A DNA stretch of 61,437 bases, counting the filler, from Globobulimina sp. (lineage: Eukaryota): NCBI GenBank assembly GCA_003354225.1. It is 15 parts of 15 records of this genome, joined end to end, with 100 filler letters (N's around TTAATTAATTAA, not from the genome) between each part and the next. Parts side by side here need not be neighbours in the genome. Positions count along the whole stretch, not along the records: positions 16,425 to 20,429 come from PIVH01001756.1; 14 more parts are not named here. The stretch is one strand, 5' to 3'. The notes beneath the pieces were generated by a model, which worked only from the letters and a program-made list of their open reading frames with translations, ran no database searches and had not been told where the DNA came from. A program made the position numbers and the translations under genes. This document shows positions 2,045 through 60,400 of this stretch, in pieces. The stretch's first letter is position 1. Each line of letters opens with the position of its first letter.

Positions 2045-4006
2045 ATGAGTAAATCACCCGAATGCATAGCACCCAGCGCTTTTGATGTGATTGAACGACA
2101 ACAATCAGCCAAAGTTGGCATATTTAATTTAATATCAACAATGATTGGTGGCGGTGTGCTATCGTTACCCTTTGCAATGTCACGCAGCGGATTGTTACTA
2201 GGTTTTATTATGTTAACAATATCGGCCATTACGTCTGTATTTTCATTCGATATTCTTGTATCATCGTCGCGGAGAACGGGAGCTATGACCTATCAAATGA
2301 TTGGATTCTTTGCCTTTGGAAAACGTATACAATCAATTATCACATTTCTTATTTTTTGTTTAACCATTACATGCGGCATCGCCTATTGTGTATTGGTCGG
2401 CGATTTAATTAAGCCAATTATTTGTTATTTGGGGACAATGTCTCCTACGCAATGCAGCGCAGAATGGCTCCGAAGATTAGTCATTGCCGGAGGCATATTC
2501 TGCGTCGCTCCCTTTTGTTACATGCGTCAAATCAAAGCATTGCAATATACCTCTTTCATCTCCATTACATCTGTCATTATTTTAGCAGCAATTATTGCAA
2601 GCAAAACAGCGACAAACTTCGATGTACCGCACGATATTTACTATATAAATCAGAATGGCTTGAAGCAAACCTATACAATGACTGAAGACATTCGATTATT
2701 CCCAGACTCCATAGGTTTGATATATTCAACACCGTTTTTCAAATTGAACGCACTTTAAATACCAATAACTGAATGAATGTTTTCCACGTTGATATACAGA
2801 GGATGTGATTTATGTGTTTCCAGTATTTTTCGTATCCTTTCTGTGTCACTTTAATATCCCCCAAGTTCACGCAGAATTGACTCGGCCCACTCGGAAGAGA
2901 ATGAGAATGATTTTGGTCACAGTTGTTTCAGTCTGCTACATATTATATGCAACAGTGGCATTTTTCGGATATTTTTACTCCTTTCAGTACACCTGCGGCA
3001 ATATACTGTTAAATTATAACCAGAATGATCCCATTGTGACCATTGCTCGATTATGCTTAGGCTTTGTCATATTATTCACATTCCCTTTGTTGATATTGCC
3101 AGCCAGGAGCTCCATGCACAACTTATTGAATTTGATATATACATTCAATGGCATGAATGTCGAAGATAATGAAAATGGATCTTTCTACGAAGACAGCCGA
3201 AGTGAGATATCATCCAAACATGCTATTGACAGTGACTCTGAGTCTGGCTCTGAGACACAAATATCAGACACATCAGAATTTGGATTATTTGGTAGCGAAA
3301 ACATGAAAAATAAAACCGTTGGAGGGGAAAATGTTGCCGTTAATAATATTAAACCAATCAAGAAATTGCAAGTTGTCAATAGAAATTTAGCATCGTATGC
3401 ATTGACACCACCTCTGGTTAGCATGGGTTCACCACACAGCACATATTCGCGCTCAACCAATCATTTGTTGTCGCAACAGCGACGAAACGTTACTTACAAC
3501 ACTTTCAATGTTAATACAACACAGAAATTGAACACTGATAAAAAAGCGATAGCGACACAATCCTCCAGCGCATTGAGACATTTTCTAAAATCAAAAGATG
3601 TGAAAATTATTAACTATGAACATGATGACAATGGATCAGAAGTTATGTTATATGAAATACTTTTTTATATTATTATGTTCCATATATAACAGCGGAGTTA
3701 TCGCAGCCACCACAGCCACCACAGCTCGTTTACAACGCGTTCCTTTTCTGTGCTCGATTCGCCGTTACGAGAGCCCTCAGACGCTCTGGGAATCATTAAT
3801 AGTCCGCAAGATATTGAATCGTTGCGAGGTAAAGATTTTACGAAACATTTTAAAGATTTGCAAAGTGCAAAATTTTATAAGCCAACTACAATTTGGTTGA
3901 TTGGAGAAACTACGATCATGATTGGCTTAGCTTTGTTTGTTGCATTTTTAACTGAGTCGGTGATGGTTGTTTGGAGTTTTATGGGTTCCACTGTCAGTTT
4001 TATGAT
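2045..4006 (+). CDS. SLC38/AAAP amino-acid transporter, multi-exon, 3' truncated
   Basis: FNLISTMIGGGVLSLPFAM, SFLCHFNI, GNILLNY, FMGSTVS; ORF pieces linked by short GT-AG introns near 2715-2800 and 3640-3690. Confidence 0.88.
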
Positions 4007-14384: not shown

Positions 14385-14929
14385 TGTAAATCCCACCAGA
14401 TTCTGATTGCATTACATCCAATTAGTTTTGCCATAAATAGATCATCATGTCTGTTCCTTTGTGCCTTATAACTAACATGACCTGATGGTGCAGTAATACC
14501 TACTATCTGGTTTCTTTGGTTGATTAGCTCCTGCATATCTCCAGTCTTTATCTCTGGAAATTGGATTGTATGGTCCTTGTATTTTTCCTTTAACCAACCA
14601 ATCATGTATGGTTTATCCACTGACCAACCCTTAGCTCTTGTCTTTTCTGTTAATTCTGATGATGTAGTTACGTAAGTAATGGGTAATTTTTTGAAAGCTT
14701 TTGATACATTCTCATAGTCGAAATTCTTCTCTATAATCATCATATCAAATTTGATTTTATTATTCAGTTTGTAAAACTCATAGGCCACTCGATTGTACTT
14801 TTCCTTTTTGAACTGCCTTGCATATCTTACGAAAATTTGTTTCTCAGGCCAGCTAGCTTGCAAACCTATTACACCAAAGGGATCATTTGATTTGCCTGGA
14901 TCACCAATTAATAATTTAAGATTCTTCAT
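14381..14929 (-). CDS. Stand-alone terminase large-subunit nuclease domain (RNase H fold)
   Basis: LIGDPGKSND, IIEKN, IQFP...ELINQ and SYKA...HDDL, the acidic catalytic pattern of TerL C-terminal domains. Confidence 0.85.
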   Translation of the reverse strand: MKNLKLLIGDPGKSNDPFGVIGLQASWPEKQIFVRYARQFKKEKYNRVAYEFYKLNNKIKFDMMIIEKNFDYENVSKAFKKLPITYVTTSSELTEKTRAKGWSVDKPYMIGWLKEKYKDHTIQFPEIKTGDMQELINQRNQIVGITAPSGHVSYKAQRNRHDDLFMAKLIGCNAIRIWWDLQ

Positions 14930-15956
14930 GCCAGTTTATCCCATCAGGATCTTTGTCCTCATCATAATCATCTTCTTCTTCTTGTTCAACTAACCATTCA
15001 GTCATGCCTTGTTGGTCCTCTTGGGAGATAGTGCCAAAGATTGAATCCTTACCTATCTTGAATTTGCATAGATATTCTTGTTCAGGATCTTCTTTTGATG
15101 AATCTATCATTTGATGTATTTCGTCATTGGTGTAGAGGTTGCCTGCTGCGTTCCAGATATCATACTCAAACATTACAAAGTCTTGAGGATCTTCATGAAT
15201 ACGATAAAACATCTTGACAGGCCCCTTGGGTGTTGATACTAGGAAAAGGTCAGCACCATTAGTTCTTACGATAGGTAGAATGGAATTGAATACGGATGTG
15301 TCATCTACTAGTTTCCATTTTGCAGCTTCATCCATGAAAATACACTTGTATTTTGTATCACCAGTAAGAGCTTCTTCACTTGCAGCAAAAGCTTCTATCA
15401 CTGTGCCATTTACTATTTTTAAGACATTACCCTTGATCCATTGTTCAACTACACCAGGAATTGATTTGTATAATCTGGCCAGTCTACGCAAATCTTTCTT
15501 AGCTAGACTGCCATTGGTTGCAGCTATGATACCTACATTGGCCCCTGCATATCTTGAGAATGAAAAGTGTAAGATTAGACGAATTACAATTTCTGTAAAT
15601 CCCATTTGTCGCCCTTTGTTTAAGTGCATGAGTAGAGGTTTTCTTAATTGTGCTATTGCATCACCAAATCCCATTCTCCCCTCAATTACCTTTATGGCAA
15701 AATCCACTTGAAATGGTGTTAATGGCATTTCCTCGTTAGTTGCAGGATGGCGAGGTAAACCGATTATGTGAGTTGTACAACATCTTGCAGTGTGTTTGTA
15801 TTCTGGATCTTTGTGGTGTAGTTCTATATCTCCACACCAGAATGGCAGTTTAGATAGTTCTTCACATAATTTTATGCCAGTAGATTCTTCTGAACCAGAA
15901 AGATTTTCTAATCCTCCTTTCTTTACCTGACTAATCAGTTGTTGAAAGTTGTCCAT
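14916..15956 (-). CDS. terL: Terminase large subunit, ATPase domain only
   Basis: LTPFQ Q-motif, KGRQMGFTE Walker A, CIFMDEAA Walker B, VSTPKG motif III, QEYLCKF; ends in an acidic tail with no nuclease domain. Confidence 0.9.
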   Translation of the reverse strand: MDNFQQLISQVKKGGLENLSGSEESTGIKLCEELSKLPFWCGDIELHHKDPEYKHTARCCTTHIIGLPRHPATNEEMPLTPFQVDFAIKVIEGRMGFGDAIAQLRKPLLMHLNKGRQMGFTEIVIRLILHFSFSRYAGANVGIIAATNGSLAKKDLRRLARLYKSIPGVVEQWIKGNVLKIVNGTVIEAFAASEEALTGDTKYKCIFMDEAAKWKLVDDTSVFNSILPIVRTNGADLFLVSTPKGPVKMFYRIHEDPQDFVMFEYDIWNAAGNLYTNDEIHQMIDSSKEDPEQEYLCKFKIGKDSIFGTISQEDQQGMTEWLVEQEEEDDYDEDKDPDGINWHEES

Positions 15957-16311
15957 TTTGAATCAGCTTTACAATTTCTATGGCCTCTGATTGCCTACAT
16001 TGATAGACTATTCTACTCCACAGATCACTTTGTTGTTTCTCCAAAGCTGCAATTTCTAAAGGTAAGCCCATTTCCTTCAGTGATTTGATAATATAAGGTT
16101 TCCAACGCCCTGAGCGAATCAGGCCAGCCTTAAATTTATTCGCCTGACCTAATTGAAAACGCATTTGTTTTTTTGCTTTACGTAAATCTTTATAAGTAAT
16201 ATTCTTCGGCCATAGGGCAAGAACTCTTTTTTCTTCTTTACTTAAACGAGCACTTTTACCATATGAGCCTGGATTTTTCTGAAGAACTTTAATCAGTTTA
16301 TCCAGTATCTT
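15931..16311 (-). CDS. Basic hypothetical viral protein upstream of terL (small-terminase position); start uncertain
   Basis: Frame stays open well upstream of the ATG at 16164 (KKILDKLIKVLQKNP...); overlaps the terL start. Confidence 0.55.
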   Translation of the reverse strand, partial: KILDKLIKVLQKNPGSYGKSARLSKEEKRVLALWPKNITYKDLRKAKKQMRFQLGQANKFKAGLIRSGRWKPYIIKSLKEMGLPLEIAALEKQQSDLWSRIVYQCRQSEAIEIVKLIQNGQLSTTD

Positions 16312-16424: not shown

Positions 16425-16652
16425 CCATGGAACCAGCACGGTCAGGACTCGGTGGCACCCCGCAACCGCATTCTTGATGACTTCGCGGTCGTTCGTCGCT
16501 CCTGGTATGACGGTGATGCGCCCCTTGAACGCGTCGAGCTTCCCGACGCTCCGCTCCCGGCACACGCCGACGACCTCGTGGCCCCGATCCAGCGCGTGCT
16601 GCACCATGTACCTTCCGAGCTTCCCGGAGGCTCCGACGATGCAGACCTTCAT
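16425..16652 (-). CDS. Bacterial NAD(P)-binding Rossmann protein (atypical SDR/flavin reductase-like), truncated
   Basis: MKVCIVGASGKLGRYMVQHALDRGHEV; GC-rich; GAGG RBS-like sequence upstream. Confidence 0.85.
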
Positions 16653-16869
16653 CGTGCGCATCCCTCACCTTCGCCAGAACAGCCATCTAGCACTCGCAGC
16701 CAACATCTACAATGCCAGGGAATAGCGCTTACTTCTCCGACTTCAGCTTCCTCGCCAACCCGCCAAGGCCCCCTCCCACAACCAGCAACGAAGCGCCAGC
16801 GCTCCCACCGAGGATATGTTGAATCTGCTGGTACGCACCGGTACCACTCAGCGTGGTGGCGGTCCCGTT

Positions 16870-17954
16870 GATTTCATCGCGCAAAAAACTCACAAATTCA
16901 GCACAAAACGTTTGCTCTAAAAATCTCTCAAAGTATTCGCGTCCAGTTTTATGCGCTAAACAGGCGTCCAAAGAGTCTAAAAACTCCAAAGTCTCCAAAT
17001 CCTGCACCCGGTCGGCAAATAAAGTCACGAAATCTTTCCCTGTCATGAGCCGCGCTGCATTCATGAACAGGTTTTCTATACAAACTATATACAAGTTATT
17101 AAATTGTATGTTGTTTTATGAGTTATACCGTGGGTTACATACATTTTATCCGTAATGTGTATATCTTTGGAAATTGCTATTTATTTCAGATTTTCAGATC
17201 AAAATATATAAAAAATGGATGGTTTTCGGAAATATGAATGTTAACCTCTTGGAAAGTGACATGGAACGCTTGCAACATAGGTAAATAATGCTGTATATTT
17301 TTATTTGTTTTTGTTTTGTTTGAAACGGATTGGTGCGAATACGTAACCTCATAAGAAATGCCGTATCGTTTGTGTTTTCGTCCTAAGTCTTTAACGATGC
17401 TCCAAACCTCAGTGTTTGCAGAGTGTAATTCCATAATTAGCCATCCGATCATTTGGAAGAATTTCTCAGAGGTTTTCTCGATATCACCGCGTAGAAATAT
17501 TTTACGACATTCTGGCATCTTTCGGAACATCTGAGCATATAAAGTGACCCCTATTTCTTGTCTACGCTCACTCGATAATATCATTAAATTATCCGCCCAA
17601 ACTATTAATTATTATGTTATATGTTATAATAATATACTTATAGTTTTATACTAAACATTGATGAGCGACTCGAATGGCTTCACGAGAAAATATATTTTGA
17701 TCTGTTAATATGGTTTTTGTTGCAGATGCAAATGAATCACGGGGCCCAGTGGGCGCACCACTTACTGTGTGATCCTCAGGCACAGACTGTGCAGTTATTG
17801 TGTTTGATTTATTTGCTCCAAACATTTGCCCTGAGACACTGTTTGTGTATTGAGTCTGTGGTATTGTTGGAAAGGAAACTTTTTGGTCCATTTCGATGTT
17901 TGCTGCGTTATGCTCCTCGATTTGACCTCTTCCTGACTTGAAACAGTTGCCCAT
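16870..17954 (-). CDS. N-acylated globin-RGS fusion protein (5 exons; C-terminus cut by a chimeric junction)
   Basis: MGNCF N-terminus; the spliced product gives a full globin (HQFW, VTLY, RKIF, LGRKHKRYGI, G and H helices) followed by RGS helices SLDACLAHKTGREYFERFLEQTFCAEFVSFL. Confidence 0.75.
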
Positions 17955-17989
17955 GTTCGTAACTTACTGGCTAAAATGCTAATATTTAG

Positions 17990-19642
17990 TTAATTATGAA
18001 GTATTCGCATATTTTGACAAGAGTGGAAGAATGTTTTTTCGCGAATAAGGATTTTTCTGATTAAGATATGTCTTGCTAAGGTATGCATATGTTTCGGTGT
18101 TGATGTATCAGCCTTCAATTTCCTTAATTCATCCTTATCCTTAGTTATTGTGGTTGGATAAAGTCTTAATCTTTGTTCACATATTGAATGTATTGAAGAT
18201 TCCACATTCGGATCAATATATTTCTCTAAATAGCGAGTTTCAAACTGATTTAATATCGATGAAATAGTGAAAGAATCGAAATGTTTTTCCGATAAAAATA
18301 TAAATCTTAAATACATTAAAAATTGTTCTGTAAATCTCACGAAAAACGATTGTTTTTTATATCTATGATGATACCATAACAAATCGATTGGATAAACGAC
18401 ATTCACTTTTGCTAAAATATCATATTTATGATACAGATTAGCATCGGATAAGAATGGAATGCATCGAATAACAACAAAATCACGCATATATTCTGCCTCA
18501 TCCATAAAACCAAACTTTGCAACGCGTGAACTTGATTTCATTCTATCTCCATAACTCACAAATATCTCCTCACCAGAATGAATATCATTATTTACCCACA
18601 AATAAACAGACACAAAATCACTCTCCTTTGTTTCCACATTTTTATTATATTTAATAATATTTCCAACCATAATTTTATCATTCCCATATTTTTCAACATT
18701 GTTTTTATTTTCTGCACCAAACAAACTGTCATAGAAAATACCAGAATCTCTCTCAACATCATGATTAAAAAAATCAAAACCTGCTGGAATCATCACACAG
18801 TGTTCGCCATTGACTTTGGTGAAATCAAAGTGAAAGAGTCTGGAGGCCACCAAGGCGTAAGCTTCTCTGACTGCGGTCTCACTCAAATGCAACATATCAA
18901 GGTACGGATAAACCATTTTGAACTCGTGGTTTAAGGCTTGTACATCTTTGAGTGTCTCACTGTTTTGCAACAATTGCAAGTCACTGTTTTGCGGCCATAG
19001 CAATGGTAAATAATCGGGAGACGGCAAGAGTTCAAACCATGGCAATAATTCTGTAGTGAAAGTTTTTAAGAAAGCAAAACCCAAAGCAAGCCATGCTCGG
19101 ATTCCAACTGAAACCAAAGTGAAAGGTTTTTCATGAAATTTGTTATGATACAAAGCTCCAAATTCAAGGTATTTGCTCTTTGCGATTTTAATCCATTCCG
19201 TATGAGTTGGAAACGAGTTTGGTAAAAAATAATTTATATTGGAATTGTCGAATATTTCATTAAACGCTTTGTGTTGAATATTTATGCGGTTATTACCAAA
19301 GTATTTTGATATAATAAATTGAGAGAACGATATCTTGACTGGAATCTGCATCAATAAATCTTGTGATTCTATCATTGTTTTCTGTGTCGAGAATAAACCT
19401 CGATTATCAGCTGTGATATATCGAAAATCCATGAATGGATGGATGAAACCATTATTTTTTTCAATCCAATCTTTGTATCGTAACCATTTTTGATGAAGTG
19501 TTTGACACGCACACGGTCCATGGAATTGTTTGATGAGGAACGCATGGGTGGGTTCTGCGCAACATTGGTGGTTAGTGGTGGAAGTAGTATGTGTTAATAA
19601 TTGTATTAAACACAGGCATATATACAGTATGAGCGAAGCCAT
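17990..19642 (-). CDS. SET-domain lysine methyltransferase (SETD3/LSMT-like) with signal peptide
   Basis: NRGLFS, LLMQIP, VASRLF, DFFNH, GEEIFVSYG; C-terminal YPTTITKD...EK typical of the LSMT substrate-binding domain. Confidence 0.85.
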   Translation of the reverse strand: MASLILYICLCLIQLLTHTTSTTNHQCCAEPTHAFLIKQFHGPCACQTLHQKWLRYKDWIEKNNGFIHPFMDFRYITADNRGLFSTQKTMIESQDLLMQIPVKISFSQFIISKYFGNNRINIQHKAFNEIFDNSNINYFLPNSFPTHTEWIKIAKSKYLEFGALYHNKFHEKPFTLVSVGIRAWLALGFAFLKTFTTELLPWFELLPSPDYLPLLWPQNSDLQLLQNSETLKDVQALNHEFKMVYPYLDMLHLSETAVREAYALVASRLFHFDFTKVNGEHCVMIPAGFDFFNHDVERDSGIFYDSLFGAENKNNVEKYGNDKIMVGNIIKYNKNVETKESDFVSVYLWVNNDIHSGEEIFVSYGDRMKSSSRVAKFGFMDEAEYMRDFVVIRCIPFLSDANLYHKYDILAKVNVVYPIDLLWYHHRYKKQSFFVRFTEQFLMYLRFIFLSEKHFDSFTISSILNQFETRYLEKYIDPNVESSIHSICEQRLRLYPTTITKDKDELRKLKADTSTPKHMHTLARHILIRKILIREKTFFHSCQNMRILHN

Positions 19643-19735
19643 TGTTCGATACTTCAGTTACTAGCTAGAAAAATTAAAAACTTCAGATCGACAAATCATT
19701 ATATCAAAATAGTTTAAAATCCAAATCAAAATAGT

Positions 19736-20224
19736 TTAATCACTCATTACCAAAGACACATATGATTCATAATTGAAATATCGATTTTCGTCAAGTTGAA
19801 GATCCTGAATCAATTTCGTGGCCTTTTCTATATTTAATTTGCTGCCATATGTAGTCAATGCAAGTTCCAATTGTTCAACAGCTATATGTCCAGCTGGAGA
19901 ATTCGAGTCAATCGCAAATAATTGGAATGCTTCAATAACTTCTTCCCTTGAATATGATGCTGATACTTTTCGGCTCATCACAGCTACAAATTCCTCAAAT
20001 TGTATCTCGCCATCATTATTTTCATCAATTTCCGCTACAATTTTATCAAGTTCGGCTTGCGTTGTATGAATCCCCATCGTAGACATTAAATGTTGCAACT
20101 CTTCCTGGGAAATGCTACCACCACGATCTTCATCTACCAAATTAAAGATTTCTTGCAATTCTGCTAGTTCTTCATCTGATAATTCCTTGAGATCACCATC
20201 ATTATTGTCATTACTTTCAGTCAT
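19736..20224 (-). CDS. Calmodulin-like EF-hand protein
   Basis: ELQEIFNLVDEDRGGSISQEEL and EIDENNDGEIQFEEF. Confidence 0.9.
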   Translation of the reverse strand: MTESNDNNDGDLKELSDEELAELQEIFNLVDEDRGGSISQEELQHLMSTMGIHTTQAELDKIVAEIDENNDGEIQFEEFVAVMSRKVSASYSREEVIEAFQLFAIDSNSPAGHIAVEQLELALTTYGSKLNIEKATKLIQDLQLDENRYFNYESYVSLVMSD

Positions 20225-20529
20225 TATTATATGTTTCTATAAATGCATAAATTATGATATGCTATGTTTCATAATCTAATACATAATTTTAACCAATTTA
20301 CTCAATGATAAAAATCTTTAAAGTCCGTCAAAATCTTTAAAGTCTTTTTTTAAAAAAAAAACTTCTTTTTCCTTCACTCCTTTAAACATGAAAAACAATG
20401 TCGTCAGCGCTTGTATCAAATATGGCCGANNNNNNNNNNNNNNNNNNNNNNNNNNNNNNNNNNNNNNNNNNNNTTAATTAATTAANNNNNNNNNNNNNNN
20501 NNNNNNNNNNNNNNNNNNNNNNNNNNNNN

Positions 20530-49240: not shown

Positions 49241-51822
49241 CTAGCGCTGCCTATGTTGTGGATATAGTTTTTAAAAGGCACTTTTTGTGGGACATTTGAT
49301 GCTATTTGGTTTATTTCAGCGTGTGTTGCAAAAACAAAACGAAATTTTTATTAACTTTTAAATTATAAAATATACAGACAGCGGAATTCGCACAATCAGC
49401 GAACTAAATAAAATGTAGGCTGATTTATTTCAGTGTATGTCTATAAAACAAACTAATTCACATTAATTTTTCAATTTTTAAAATATACAGAAATATAATT
49501 AATTATAGTTAATTGGAGAAAGAAAGAAGAATTCATGTGCCGCTCGTTATGATTTGCTTATTGGTCGAATGGTTTGTTTCATTCATTAATTTGCTTATAA
49601 TCCAAAACATTCTATAGTCAAAAAAAGTCTGTTCAAGTCATCCATGGCTGCTCTTAAGATCTTCACTGTGTGATATATTATAATTTATAAATAGCGCCGA
49701 ACAGAATGTCTCAAAATATCTCCAGAATTTGCCTGGAACCGCAGACATCGTGGAATTAATTCTAAAAAAAACCAAATCCGATTGGAATCGAATCGCACCG
49801 AATCGAATGGACAAAATAAAGAAATTATTAAGGTGAAATTATTTTGAATCCAACCACAAAATTGAGAACTCGACCTCGATCTCGATGATAATATTAATAA
49901 TAAAATAAAATACGTTGTGCGGCGCCATTGATAATTGGGAAGTGTATGACAGCCAATTGAGTATGAATGTGGATGGCGGCGGCTCGATATCAAAGAGTGT
50001 GTTGCAGAGCGTGCTGCATATCAATAACAGACAATCGCAGGAGTTCCGCGAGACGCAACGCATATTGGACACTATCATCCGAATGGCGGAAAAGTTGAAG
50101 GAATTGGGCGAAATCTATCAGTATGACTCGTTTGTGTGGACTGGCATTGCTTTGTTGCGCGCAAACGTCAAAATTGAGAAACAAAAGCAAGTCTTTATTA
50201 AAGGGTTGGAGCTGTTGAACATCGTGTTGGATGACGAGGACATTACGTTGCAATATTTGTTTGTCAATCAGTATGCGGCAAAGATGATGGAATCTAAACA
50301 GAATCAGAGTCAACAAAGCCAACACCGACCGAGCATTGAATTGTTTCACAGTGGGAACTCGAATAAAGTGTATGGTACACCGCAAGGCGGCAATAATGTG
50401 GTCAAACACGCCCGATTTGGCACCGCCGGCGGGCGCAGGAATGAGAATTATGTGCCCGCCAATCGGCACGTACCTGTCAACAGTTTGACTATGAGTGCCA
50501 ACCAGTGGCGCAATTACGACGATTATAAGGAATCCATGAACAATAACAACAACACACCGCTACTTAACCCACAACAACAACCAGATTGGCAGTACGAGAA
50601 CGAGTTACTGGATGACTATGATTACGAGCCGTCGTTTAATGAGAACGAGCCGTATTTATTTGGTGGTGGTGGCACGTCCGGTGGGCCACACGCACAAATG
50701 TTGGATAATAAGCAAAGAAGGAACAACAATGTGGGTAATAACAAGAATGAGGAGAAGTATGATAACAACGATATGATGGTGGATTACCGGAATAATAACC
50801 ATTACGTCTATGACATATATAGCAATGATTTGGCAGAGTCCTTCTTAGCTTATTGCATTGATTGGGCGCCGCCCTTTGCCGGGATACATCCGTATTTGTT
50901 GCAGGGTTTATTGCAGTGCGAGATCGAGGATAACACGTTTCGAGTATTGAAGAAAGTGTTAACTACAAAGATGGATAAGTTGGCAGATAGGTCCTCGGCC
51001 CGGCCATGTTTATGTATTATCGCTGTGTTGCCGTACATGTATTATATCATTCGCTATAAACCGGAGTATTTTGCCACGATCTCGCATTCGTTGTTTGCGT
51101 CGTTGATATTACTAACGTCGACGTCCGGCAATTCGTACAATAATCCGTACCAATCATTGAAGAATAAGTTTGAATTTTGGAGCAACTGTCCAATTAACAG
51201 CGAAAATGTGCATATTTTGTTGAAGGAATTCTGCCAAGTGATTGTAAAAACTTTTTTCAATGAACATGCCGGATTGGTGGCCAATTATTTGTATGCTTTG
51301 TTGTGTTCGTCGCGGATGATCCATCATCATACCACGGTGTACAAAATGGCCGCTTTATTTTTAAACCAGGACGCAAATTACATCCAAGCCTTCAAAGATA
51401 TCATCGAATCTGCGCATAAAACGGTGTCTGAGAAAGTGGACAAAGTGCGGAGTAAATCCAATTTGAATATGCACCAAATATCCTCTTCGCGCGCGTCCAA
51501 TCTTAATATTTATATGCAACAAATCACCATCGATGACAGCGATTATATCTCGGAGATGGCAGACGCAGCGACGGAATTAGTGGCCACCGGTATCGATTAT
51601 TTGAAAGCGAGGGAAAAGCAAAGATTTACCAAAAAGTATAATGCCGGCGATTTTGAGTCGACCTCTGGCGGAACCACCAAAAATAAGGATACACCGTACA
51701 AGTCGAATATTATTCGGTGGGATGTTCACATCAATGATGTTACGCCGTTTCCGCAAACTGGATTAAAGGATGTAAGCAATGCGTTGTGGGGCGTGGTTAA
51801 GGAGACGAGATCTGTTGTATAA
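49241..51822 (+). CDS. Furry/TAO3/MOR2-like protein C-terminal region, multi-exon, 5' truncated
   Basis: FVWTGIALL...FIKGLELL and FAGIHPYLLQGL resemble the Furry C-terminal domain; N/Q-rich insert. Confidence 0.6.
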
Positions 51823-57439: not shown

Positions 57440-60400
57440 ATTCATGGCGCAGCTAAAGATAAGCCAGTCCGCGCATTGTTACTTCGCATCGAACCTGAAT
57501 GTATTATTGGCGTTGGGCAAGGTGAGGAATTGCGAGCAACGCTGTTACAATTTAAAGAGAAGTATAACAAAGCAATTATTGTCTATGCAGATAATATATC
57601 TTCGTGGGGCGTCAATGGCTTTCGTCATTATTATATCGCCAGTGTAGCATCGAAGATATATATGTCTGATGATGGCTTATTAAATCTAGGGCCACAAACC
57701 ATTGACTTTCCATTTCTTAAAACTGGATTGAAAGAGAAGTTGGATATTACGGTGGAAGTCCGACGGAGAGCTCAATATAAATCCGCGTGTATGTCATTAT
57801 ATGCTCTCCACTCAATCAATATTTTTGTTGTTGTTTGTTTTTTGTTTCCATTCACATGTATTTAGTTAACATGTTTTCCAATGATGAATTTGATGAATTC
57901 CATAAAGAACAATATATGCAATTAATTGAACACTTAGAAAAGAATTTCATTGACACAGTGAGTAAATCGAGATTATTGAAACCGTACTCCATCCCCAAAG
58001 ACCCCAAAATCATCCAATCCATCAAATGGATGGCACAGCAAATTGTGAATGAGAATGAAAATAATTTAGAGTTTAAATTAGATGACATATCACGCATTGA
58101 GCAACAAAGTAACATATTAAGCAATATCAAAGAAGAGAAATCCGACGAATTGGATGAAAATTATAGCGGTTCTGGTAATAAGTTAGAAGATGAATGGAAT
58201 GCTAAACTAATGTATTTGGTACATTGTTGGTCATGGAACGATGGCAACTATAAACATCCCAAATTATTCGTGGTATTACAATTTTATCATAAAATCAAAA
58301 AAGAAAACGTATTTTATAAAGCAACACTCGCTTATCCTTCAAAACGATTAGGTTTGTCACAAAAAATAAATATTCCCAAACCGTAAAACATTTTTATTCA
58401 CTCCGCATGACCAAAATTGTGCGAATCCATAATGAGCGAAGGCGGAATAATCAATTCCTTGTTGGCATCGCTGGCCAAATACTGTTGCAATAATTGTGTC
58501 AATTCGTTATTCTCCTTTTGTAGCTTTTTAATTTTGAGTGCTTCACATTTCCTGTGTTCCAATATTTTATTATATTTTAATAGATATTGTTCCAACAACG
58601 ACCAAGTCTTTATATTTTGAGCTGGAAACACATGCTGTAAACTTTTCCAATATTGTCGATCTTTTCGTTTTCGTCGTTCTTGTTTTTCTTTGGATACTGA
58701 AGTTAAGGCGTGTTGGACTGAGAAATTTGTGTTTTTCACGGTATGATCTCGATTGGATACGTATTTTTTGACCATTGCTATGGTTTGATGCGGTTCAATT
58801 GATAGCTCATCGCCATCCTCGTCGATAAATAAAGAGATTAATTCTTCCAAATCCTCGATATCTTCAATGCCCAAAGATTTTAAGATGGAGTCGCATTGCA
58901 ATAATAACTGTTGATCACAGGGGATATAATTTAACTTTTCTTTGATGTTGCAATTAATTAAAAATGGCGCCTGGTTTATTAACAATTTCATCACTGTCAT
59001 TATTTGCTCAGTGCTGTATTTATTGCAGTTTGTGAGGTTGGATTTATTTTTCTTTGCGCGGTTCGAATCCATTGGTGTGGATATTGACACTTTTGAGTTT
59101 GTGTTGGAATCTGTATTATTTTCATCCATTATCAGCATGTTTTCATCATCATTTTGTTGCAATTGCTCCGGTTGCAACTGTATACCGTTGAAATCATTGC
59201 CGTTTTTTGTATGGAATTGATGATTTAACGTCGGATATAATTGACTGTATAAATCATTTGGTATTTGCCATTGATTTACATCCCATTCAATACCTAATAA
59301 CTGACTCGATATAATCTGGTCACTTTTCATGATTTGTCGCAAAATATCCACTGCTTCTTCCCCATTCATAGCACATATTTCATCATATTTTGCGATATCT
59401 GTTTGTTGGAAGTGTTTAAATTTGCGCTGTAATTCTTTATACTGTCTACTAATTCGCGTATACTCATCATTCAATACCTTATGATCCTCTTTAAATTTCT
59501 TATCAAATTTGCTAAATTTCTCCTTAATATTAGTCACGGACTCTTTTAGTTTCTTCTCTCTCCGTTTCAAATGATCCACAGTCGTAATATTCTCCTTTTC
59601 GCGCTCTTTCAATACTTGGAAATTATAGTTTAATTTCTCTGTATTCAACTGGTACATTGCGCGCATTTCAGCCAATTGCTGCTCTAAAAGTTGTATATGA
59701 TTTTCTAAATTTATTTTTAATTTGCTATACGATTCTTGATCATCTCTGCGCACACACTCTAAATCCGTATGGTACTTATCATTGCACATTATTTTGCGTT
59801 CCAAAATCATAAATTCCTGCCGCTCTCTCTTCGTATACAACTCATCCAAAACCTGTTGATTTTCATCAATAATCTGCCTCCGCTCCGTCATAAATGCCAT
59901 CTCCACCGCAATTATTTGCGTCTCATATTCGTTTTTAATATTTTTAACCGTATCATGCATGCGCCAAATCATTGTCGTTATATCACTTTCTTCGGATTTT
60001 AATAAATTGATATATTGTTCGGATTTTTTATTAAAGTCAGTCATAAATTGTTTTCGCACAGATTCATAGCCATTGATTGATTGCTTGCAGTCTAATTTTG
60101 TTGCTTCAATCGCTGCATATAAGGCTTGTGGGTTTTTGATTTGTTGAATATTATCCCATTGGGTATCAATGTCATCGTTTATTTCTTTGCCAGTTTCTAC
60201 ACATTGCTCGATTCGATACATTCGTGAATCATATTCTTGCGCACATTTTTGGCGTCGATTAGATGCTTTTATCTGTGATAATAGTTTGATGTCAGCCACA
60301 TTGTCATTGATGTCTTGCGCTGTATCATCGACCATATCGCGTGATTTTTTTATTTGTAATTTAGTTTTTGATTGGCATAGCAATGCATCATTCACTCCGT

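Follow-up and report, generated by a model that had tools for sequence, protein, structure and literature searches.

Bacterial globin-coupled sensors, of which HemAT, DosC/YddV and AfGcHK are examples, are proteins in which the ligand or redox state of a heme controls an output, and the heme-based globin sensors of bacteria drive kinases, cyclases and chemotaxis receptors. To our knowledge, the regulator of G-protein signalling (RGS) domain is not among the outputs of globin-coupled sensors, nor is a heme domain among the many accessory domains that regulate RGS proteins. Vertebrate globin X is an N-acylated membrane globin (MG.. with a nearby Cys) that carries no signalling output domain, and we know of no eukaryotic globin sensor wired to heterotrimeric G-protein signalling. 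Here we analyse a stretch of 61,437 nucleotides from the foraminifer Globobulimina sp. (assembly GCA_003354225.1), called the window below, whose minus strand holds at 16880-17954 the first part of a spliced gene in which a globin is fused to an RGS domain. An earlier note on this DNA had proposed such a fusion at 16870-17954, with an MGxC acylation motif and a role in gas sensing.

The protein resembles a bacterial globin-coupled sensor in having an N-terminal heme-globin input, a helix and a C-terminal signalling output in one chain. It differs in being eukaryotic, spliced and probably lipid-anchored, in having RGS as its output, and in a globin that matches the Pfam Globin model and matches Protoglobin only below threshold. 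It has the layout of a globin-coupled sensor without being a member of the sensor-globin lineage. Its MG.. start with a nearby Cys, a context for which myristoylation plus palmitoylation is predicted, is like that of globin X. Human neuroglobin offers a likeness of another kind, in that, according to PMC4842972, its heme oxidation state controls heterotrimeric G-protein signalling at membranes. However, neuroglobin works in trans and lacks an RGS domain; its effect is to inhibit the release of GDP, not to speed GTP hydrolysis, and in the structural alignment it is only 13–15% identical to the foraminiferal protein.

A spliced globin–RGS gene on a chimeric contig

The gene starts with an ATG at 17954-17952 and consists of five exons separated by four GT..AG introns of 55, 57, 69 and 58 nt, whose GC content is 13–30% against 40.7% in the exons. 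Joining the exons by script gives 279 stop-free codons, and the product is 76.9% identical over residues 1-278 to its closest relatives, P0001 and P0009, which are Nonionella stella and Bolivina argentea proteins of 382–388 amino acids. With 279 codons set against about 380–390 residues in the orthologues, 16880-17954 is approximately the first 70% of a foraminiferal gene. Exon 2 alone matches eight proteins at E-values from 2.5e-39 to 1.7e-27, and the orthologue sequences run unbroken over each of the four predicted junctions, as in ..HQFWNDN.. and ..YEHYLPMLQAFHVTFQEQFPK.YTLRIKFCIENLF...

Exon 1 (17657-17954) carries the start codon, the MGNC acylation-type motif, a low-complexity stretch of about 85 residues with predicted disorder, and the first part of globin helix A; these are assigned from the sequence, a tblastn match with P0001 residues 1-98 and the predicted local distance difference test (pLDDT) values of a structural model. 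Exon 2 (17348-17601) encodes globin helices A to F, including B10 Tyr, CD1 Phe, E7 Thr, E11 Phe and the proximal His F8 (codon 17372-17374), which were placed by alignment with Hell's Gate globin I. It is separated by intron 1 (17602-17656, 13% GC) from exon 1 and by intron 2 (17291-17347) from exon 3. The short exons 3 (17246-17290; helix G, HYLPMLQAFHVTFQE) and 4 (17143-17176; QFPKIYTLRIK, from the G-H turn into the first part of helix H) lie on either side of intron 3 (17177-17245) and are assigned from the sequence and the orthologue alignment. After intron 4 (17085-17142) comes exon 5, which is truncated (16880-17084) and contains the end of helix H, a linker helix and the first 39 or so residues of the RGS domain (about 16995-16880). 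This exon is 92.6% identical to P0001 residues 211-278, and it matches the Pfam RGS model at E 0.003 and an RGS hidden Markov model (HMM) of the family at E 7e-17.

Contigs from three public runs follow this model. Those of X5, identical to the window, and those of X6 and X8, 90–99% alike, skip introns 1, 3 and 4, and the skipped segments end CT..AC on the plus strand, that is, GT..AG on the gene strand. Intron 2 is also skipped, and exon 2 joined to exon 3, in X5 record 5 and X6 record 10. These runs are not on record as RNA; we infer that they are transcripts because of their spliced form, high depth and adaptor tails. The low-depth run X1 retains the introns, as expected of genomic DNA. A spliced foraminiferal globin–RGS fusion gene at 16880-17954 is thus real, as is attested also by the Pfam scans of orthologues, by model matches to both folds and by spliced contigs that run from globin into RGS. 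The earlier note had the first intron exactly, and its other three, given as "about" 17292-17347, 17180-17246 and 17090-17145, are off by 1–5 nt. The peptide strings that it quoted are correct minus-strand translations, and the open reading frame (ORF) track does split the gene into three pieces, as it had remarked (17646-17963, 17186-17608 and 16729-17115).

In a single X5 contig of low depth (6.4, where the main form has about 370), 17084 is linked straight to 17426 on the minus strand, so that 341 nt are missing, among them part of exon 2 and the whole of exons 3 and 4. Either a paralogue or a minor, aberrant form of splicing could account for it.

At its 3′ end the gene is cut short by the assembly. 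As far as 16880 the window and the native gene are in agreement; from 16879 on they differ. All four runs (X1, X5, X6 and X8, the last with one synonymous difference) share a loose end of 30 letters at 16880, and on the gene strand it continues in frame as ..L-R-A-F-D-E-F-K-Q-I-G.., identical to P0001 residues 277-288. The window instead reads DEINGTATT... in GC-rich sequence (DEINGT...KSEK*) to a stop at 16729, and tblastn homology to the orthologues stops at 16879. The contig, 16425-20429, has mostly 26–44% GC, whereas 16425-16880 has 57–65%. Within this GC-rich part, 16425-16655 matches the Pfam models NAD_binding_10 (2.9e-10) and NmrA (8.3e-10), and the fragment has 82–93% amino-acid identity to 80 bacterial loci, with blastn matches confined to 16425-16696. 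We therefore read 16425-16878 as a foreign, bacterial-type piece outside the gene, with the N-terminus of an NmrA/NAD(P)H-binding protein on the minus strand; 16697-16878 is included for its bacterial-like composition. Neither Pfam nor the 80 bacterial loci gave a match to the 49-residue tail at 16729-16878.

The contig is, then, wrongly joined to bacterial DNA at 16879/16880, with the loss of the last 100 or so codons. This call rests on the shared loose end at 16880; the interval 16425-16872, which has no cover in the four runs, was not used as evidence. A real bacterial insertion in the gene was considered and rejected, as the low-depth, unspliced X1 continues with RGS sequence instead. The in-frame tail of the ORF at 16729-17115 is an artefact of the join and no part of the gene. 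Accordingly, of the extent 16870-17954 first proposed, the start (ATG 17954) stands and the end does not, since both homology and gene stop at 16879/16880; towards the 3′ end that the earlier note had reckoned missing, the four runs continue in frame as RGS beyond 16880. It had also named three outcomes that would speak against its proposal, none of which occurred: the spliced contigs do not end after the globin, an RGS match is present, and the RGS domain begins in the AT-rich, eukaryotic sequence, ahead of the misjoin. The case shows that eukaryote–bacterium misjoins occur in this assembly, and that ORF-based tracks hide genes with short introns.

The 77-residue NmrA fragment matches metagenome-assembled genomes labelled Chloroflexota, Acidobacteriota, Desulfobacterota, Gemmatimonadota, Planctomycetota and others. 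An identity of 82–93% over so many phyla is unusually uniform for one gene.

The two domains and their family

Both domains were recognised by a scan of orthologues with the Pfam models. Globin (PF00042) passes its cut-off of 22 bits in six of eight orthologues (22.1–27.8 bits), the other two being a 217-aa fragment and P0008, and RGS (PF00615) passes its cut-off of 23.9 bits in seven of the eight (37–49 bits, the best at about 1e-12). The pieces in the window fall just under these thresholds because each is only a fragment. Exon 2 alone scores 20.9 bits with Globin (E 5e-4, model positions 2-76), and the window's RGS fragment scores 18.5 bits over model positions 1-33 of 117, a partial match because the rest of the domain was lost at the misjoin. 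With HMMs of the family itself the matches are far stronger: the spliced product scores 190.7 bits (E 7e-61) with the globin HMM, and its end matches the first 39 positions of the RGS HMM (whole-sequence E 6e-19). That its last part is the beginning of an RGS domain, as had been noticed, is therefore borne out.

The structural comparisons were made on the orthologue P0001. An AlphaFold model built from a 45-sequence family alignment has a mean pLDDT of 77.9 and a predicted template-modelling score of 0.65. Residues 1-85 fall below 50, 10-residue block means are 74–96 from residue 91 on, and the globin helices, 90-224, have block means of 85–95. When the N-terminal half was searched with Foldseek, Hell's Gate globin I (3s1i) was matched with a target template-modelling score (TM) of 0.87 and a root-mean-square deviation (rmsd) of 2.2 Å, and neuroglobin with TM 0.68–0.83. 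The C-terminal half matched RGS8, RGS16 and RGS18 with target TM 0.74–0.86 and rmsd 1.9–3.2 Å. The model thus predicts a 3-on-3 α-helical globin fold followed by a nine-helix, R4-like RGS fold. The RGS helices of the model span 248-381, of which the window holds only about the first two. A profile of eight homologues, searched against solved chains, gave RGS18 as the best RGS chain (E 2.9e-9) and Hell's Gate globin I as the best globin (E 1.7e-7), followed by a Roadblock/LC7-fused globin (E 2e-7) and, further down, the globin domain of an NO synthase from a cyanobacterium (E 3e-3). Axin appeared in the sequence search only at E 0.07–0.09. ESM Atlas returned no usable match for the protein.

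The closest solved globins are therefore Hell's Gate globin I (3s1i/3ubc), HGbRL (3wfw) and the syNOS globin (9q15), which share with the foraminiferal protein the B10 Tyr and an F-helix motif, LGxxHxxxGV/I. They are bacterial, with other fusion partners and no acylation motif, and Hell's Gate globin I has Gln at E7 where the foraminiferal protein has Thr. In HGbRL, the Roadblock/LC7-fused protein of Methylacidiphilum, and in syNOS the same type of globin is found as a fused module. The Protoglobin model (PF11563) scores 15.6–20.6 bits against a cut-off of 25 in five of eight orthologues, always below the Globin score. Because Protoglobin stays under threshold and the nearest solved globins are flavohemoglobin-like, the foraminiferal globin is of the flavohemoglobin-like single-domain kind, outside the bacterial sensor-globin lineage.

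The globin hallmarks first pointed out in the window product are all in place, namely an A-helix Phe-Trp, B10 Tyr121, CD1 Phe135 and F8 His176; the Hell's Gate globin I alignment adds E7 Thr143 and E11 Phe147. How far they are kept was counted in 45 full-length family members, the sample used for all residue counts given here. F8 is His in 41 and Tyr in 4, and 39 members retain a His on helix G (His193 in P0001). The distal side is more varied, with Tyr (24) or Phe (16) at B10, Phe (22), Leu (11) or Met (7) at CD1, Thr (12), Leu (10), Gln (7) or Val (4) at E7, and Phe (23), Leu (8) or Tyr (7) at E11. The members with Tyr at F8 include Reticulomyxa filosa ETO32836.1, the only member annotated at NCBI.

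RGS4 contacts Gα through residues that we take to be Glu87, Asn88, Asn128, Asp163, Ser164 and Arg167. Their equivalents in P0001 are Glu, Tyr, Glu, Asn, Ser and Lys, and the window retains only the first two positions, as Glu273 and Phe274. In the family, the Glu87-equivalent is Glu in 42 of 45 and the Asn88-equivalent is Asn in just one. At the Asn128 position there is Asn in 29, Glu in 8 and Asp in 5; the Asp163-equivalent is Asn in 32, the Ser164-equivalent His in 21 and Ser in 11, and the Arg167-equivalent Lys in 19 and Arg in 5. Compared with the R4-type proteins RGS18, RGS16, RGS8 and RGS4, the foraminiferal domain thus has in common the nine-helix fold, the Glu87-equivalent and, in most paralogues, the Asn128-equivalent. 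It differs in the N-terminal globin, in an inter-helix loop that is 20–45 residues longer in some members, in a hydrophobic or aromatic Asn88-equivalent and, in the clade of the window, in Glu or Asp for Asn128.

Two cysteines in the first RGS helices, C251 and C270 of P0001 (Cys252 and Cys271, both in exon 5, in the window product), are near-invariant: each is present in 44 of 45 members, a conservation that no residue of the heme pocket reaches apart from the F-helix Gly. RGS18 differs from this near-invariant pair and has Ser in the place of C270. The two may form a thiol switch, a site of nitrosylation or palmitoylation, or a structural pair.

At the N-terminus the window protein reads MGNCFKS, so that the Gly2 and Cys4 of the proposed MGxC motif are present; its position 6 is less typical, as is taken up below. 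Thirty-one of the 45 members start with MG. Position 6 of these is small in 19 (Ser 10, Ala 4, Thr 2, and Gly, Cys and Asn once each) and Gln in six, and 13 of the 31 have a Cys within residues 3-6. By these residues, the N-termini fit N-myristoylation and, in part of the family, palmitoylation. Directly ahead of the globin, at about 17730-17745 on the minus strand (P0001 residues 91-95), there is a short R-x-S-F/L motif, which reads PRDSF in the window and RRNSF, RQHSF or KRDSL in orthologues. It is kept amid low-complexity sequence that cannot be aligned, and it resembles a basophilic kinase site.

The family is large. An HMMER scan of 1.84 billion cluster representatives gave 247 matches at E ≤ 1e-3, 118 at ≤ 1e-10 and 42 at ≤ 1e-30. 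When 161 stored proteins were checked against two HMMs, one for globin and one for RGS, cut from alignment A1, 94 had both domains, 49 globin only, 15 RGS only and 3 neither; many of the single-domain proteins are short fragments. Globin stands ahead of RGS in every listed row of the 94 two-domain proteins. Of 27 clusters looked up, 18 have a species label and all 18 are foraminiferal, the other nine being unlabelled. The labelled relatives are from Nonionella stella, Bolivina argentea, Ammonia sp. and Reticulomyxa filosa, and a second profile search, with alignment A2, gave 13 matches and no new taxa. Judged from these sequences, the family comprises dozens of foraminiferal paralogues with differing distal heme pockets.

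The R. filosa protein ETO32836.1 (UniRef X6P3R6) is a member that goes under the names "hypothetical protein" and "RGS domain-containing protein". The family is thus present in databases and unrecognised there, and apparently it is undescribed. We found no description of a globin–RGS protein in the literature searched, which did not extend to subscription reviews of microbial eukaryote globins and to supplements. The novelty claimed at the outset holds in so far as no paper was found; it does not hold in the sense of a fusion new to databases, since the R. filosa entry was already there.

Seven of the proteins matched (P0037, P0109, P0120, P0122, P0126, P0130 and P0134) are giant proteins of 860–3690 aa with 4–14 tandem related globin stretches. 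The one with 14 stretches, P0037 (2461 aa), lies on a 34.9-kb contig and bears the JGI name "hemoglobin-like flavoprotein". Two divergent members, P0092 and P0113, come from ENA records that both list 21,870 bases for the longest contig, and may be tandem paralogues on one contig.

A putative heme sensor and its rivals

Read from its N-terminus, the protein opens with MG(N)C, a start of the type that receives N-myristoyl and S-palmitoyl groups. Some 85 disordered residues rich in Ser, Thr and Asn then lead to the 3-on-3 globin, which a single linker helix connects with a nine-helix RGS domain. We lean, if not heavily, towards the proposal that this is a lipid-anchored heme sensor, in which O2, NO (nitric oxide) or redox state would control the engagement of Gα by the RGS domain. 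The acyl anchor would place the protein at the membrane beside acylated Gα subunits. Binding of a heme ligand (O2 or NO) or a change of redox state would shift globin helix H and the linker, and this shift would in turn alter the engagement of GTP-bound Gα by the RGS domain. Local O2, NO or redox conditions would thus set the lifetime of G-protein signals, an arrangement apt for protists moving through sediment along steep redox gradients. A family of tuned sensors fits with the conserved proximal His, with the variable distal pocket among paralogues and with the Asn and Glu kept in most of the RGS domains. As for possible partners, PMC5784254 gives the rhizarian Bigelowiella natans more than 30 Gα genes.

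Several points weigh against this proposal, at least for the paralogue in the window. We infer, all four, heme binding, acylation, Gα binding and activity as a GTPase-activating protein (GAP). The contact residues were mapped through an RGS18 alignment and the RGS4 numbering taken above, the only literature context found for Gα is that of B. natans, and the spliced runs lack an RNA record, one being unlabelled and two only guessed to be RNA. The Asn128-equivalent (the Asn of "VNLD" in RGS18) is Glu or Asp in the window's clade, that is, in nine of nine members at least 60% identical to P0001 and in two Reticulomyxa-like ones besides, and the Asn88-equivalent of the clade is Tyr or Phe. Because the canonical set of catalytic contacts is incomplete, the window paralogue may bind Gα differently or may have no GAP activity. 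The four members with Tyr at F8 (P0013, P0015, P0107 and P0113) may ligate heme differently or may have lost it. Finally, the window protein has Lys at position 6, where close orthologues have Gln and the rest of the family commonly a small residue after MG, and this is an atypical context for myristoylation.

The same incomplete contact set lends some weight to an alternative in which the globin is the working part. The protein would then be a membrane-anchored NO dioxygenase, a nitrite reductase or a scavenger of O2 or reactive oxygen species, and the RGS-like domain would be a docking or scaffold label with no GAP activity. RGS-homology domains are docking modules in axin, GRK2 and sorting nexins, a B10 Tyr distal pocket is typical of flavohemoglobin-like globins, and the known denitrification in these foraminifera would make NO. 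The closest solved globins, which are Hell's Gate globin I and that of the cyanobacterial NO synthase, are indeed flavohemoglobin-like, and the clade of the window lacks the equivalents of both Asn128 and Asn88. However, the family at large keeps the Asn128-equivalent in 29 of 45 members and the Glu87-equivalent in 42, and the best RGS matches from Foldseek are of the GAP-active R4 type, several of them solved with Gα, while axin stays at the marginal E-values given above. In addition, no reductase domain is fused, and a distal pocket in which E7 alone may be Thr, Leu, Gln or Val fits tuned sensors better than one conserved enzyme. We consider the enzyme alternative unlikely, although it is the most serious of the rivals.

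A further alternative borrows from neuroglobin. PMC4842972 describes neuroglobin of humans, in the ferric state, as an inhibitor of guanine nucleotide dissociation (GDI) that binds Gαi/o-GDP, a precedent in trans for a globin that acts on G proteins. By analogy, the foraminiferal globin would be a redox-dependent GDI on Gα-GDP while the RGS domain holds Gα-GTP, so that in an oxidising setting the fusion would keep Gα trapped throughout its cycle. The structures that the globin half matches include neuroglobin, at the TM values already given, and both partners would be membrane-anchored. Against this, the same source has zebrafish neuroglobin without GDI activity, so that the property is not general to globins, and the identity to neuroglobin is only 13–15%. 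We hold this two-handed scheme to be improbable. Lastly, we give next to no credence to the fusion being an artefact, whether through an error in the gene model or through an assembly that joined a globin gene to an RGS gene: misjoins do occur in the assembly, as at 16879/16880, but the passage from globin to RGS lies upstream of that join and inside a single exon (17084-16880), and the artefact is refuted by the Pfam scan of orthologues, by transcript-derived proteins with both domains obtained independently from four foraminiferal genera, by the 94 two-domain proteins and by spliced contigs from three studies that span both parts.

The surrounding DNA and the place of the family in foraminiferal biology

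The window, 1-61437, is made of 15 contigs of about 4.0 kb each (30.6–39.4% GC), joined by spacers of the form N44-TTAATTAATTAA-N44. Because these are separate contigs placed end to end, genes on either side of a spacer are not linked. A scan with the family HMMs found no second family member in the window. Weak tblastn matches at 537-713, 59036-59200 and 49713-49790 were not recovered significantly by these HMMs and were set aside, as was a marginal HMM match at 3780-3926 (E 0.04), which reads as noise and is antisense to a long plus-strand ORF.

On the contig of the globin–RGS gene, the upstream neighbour is an intron-free ORF of 555 codons at 17993-19657 on the minus strand. It has a Rubisco-LSMT substrate-binding domain (Pfam 7.3e-6) and is therefore probably a SET-type methyltransferase. 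Its stop codon is only about 36 nt ahead of the globin–RGS start codon, and a single X5 contig of 1755 nt bridges 17873-18100. The plus-strand ORFs opposite the gene, 16823-17155 and 17633-17941, have no Pfam match above threshold, and an Rfam scan of 16425-20429 gave nothing. The preceding contig carries, at 14919-15962 on the minus strand, an ORF of 348 codons in AT-rich, eukaryote-like sequence. Pfam Terminase_6N, the model for the ATPase domain at the N-terminus of T4-type terminase large subunits, matches it at 9.8e-9 and 35.6 bits, with a cut-off of 22. By this match, the assembly may here contain DNA of a virus or a mobile element.

What might such a family do for its hosts? Benthic foraminifera are known for hypoxic, anoxic and nitrate-respiring life. 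It is tempting to propose, though as a whole we hold it less likely than not, that the dozens of membrane globin–RGS paralogues make up a receptor-independent array for sensing gas and redox state. Each paralogue would answer to a ligand or range of its own, be it O2, NO or possibly sulfide or redox potential, and would directly set the off-rate of the G-protein signals that steer pseudopodial movement and metabolism along redox gradients in the sediment. They would then be the first eukaryotic class of globin-coupled sensors, and the first case of gas-gated control of G proteins at the GAP level. The conserved and much-duplicated globin–RGS family is, in any event, a testable molecular candidate for O2 and NO sensing in foraminifera, and it would give biochemists a natural fusion in which to study the disputed globin–G-protein link that neuroglobin first raised.

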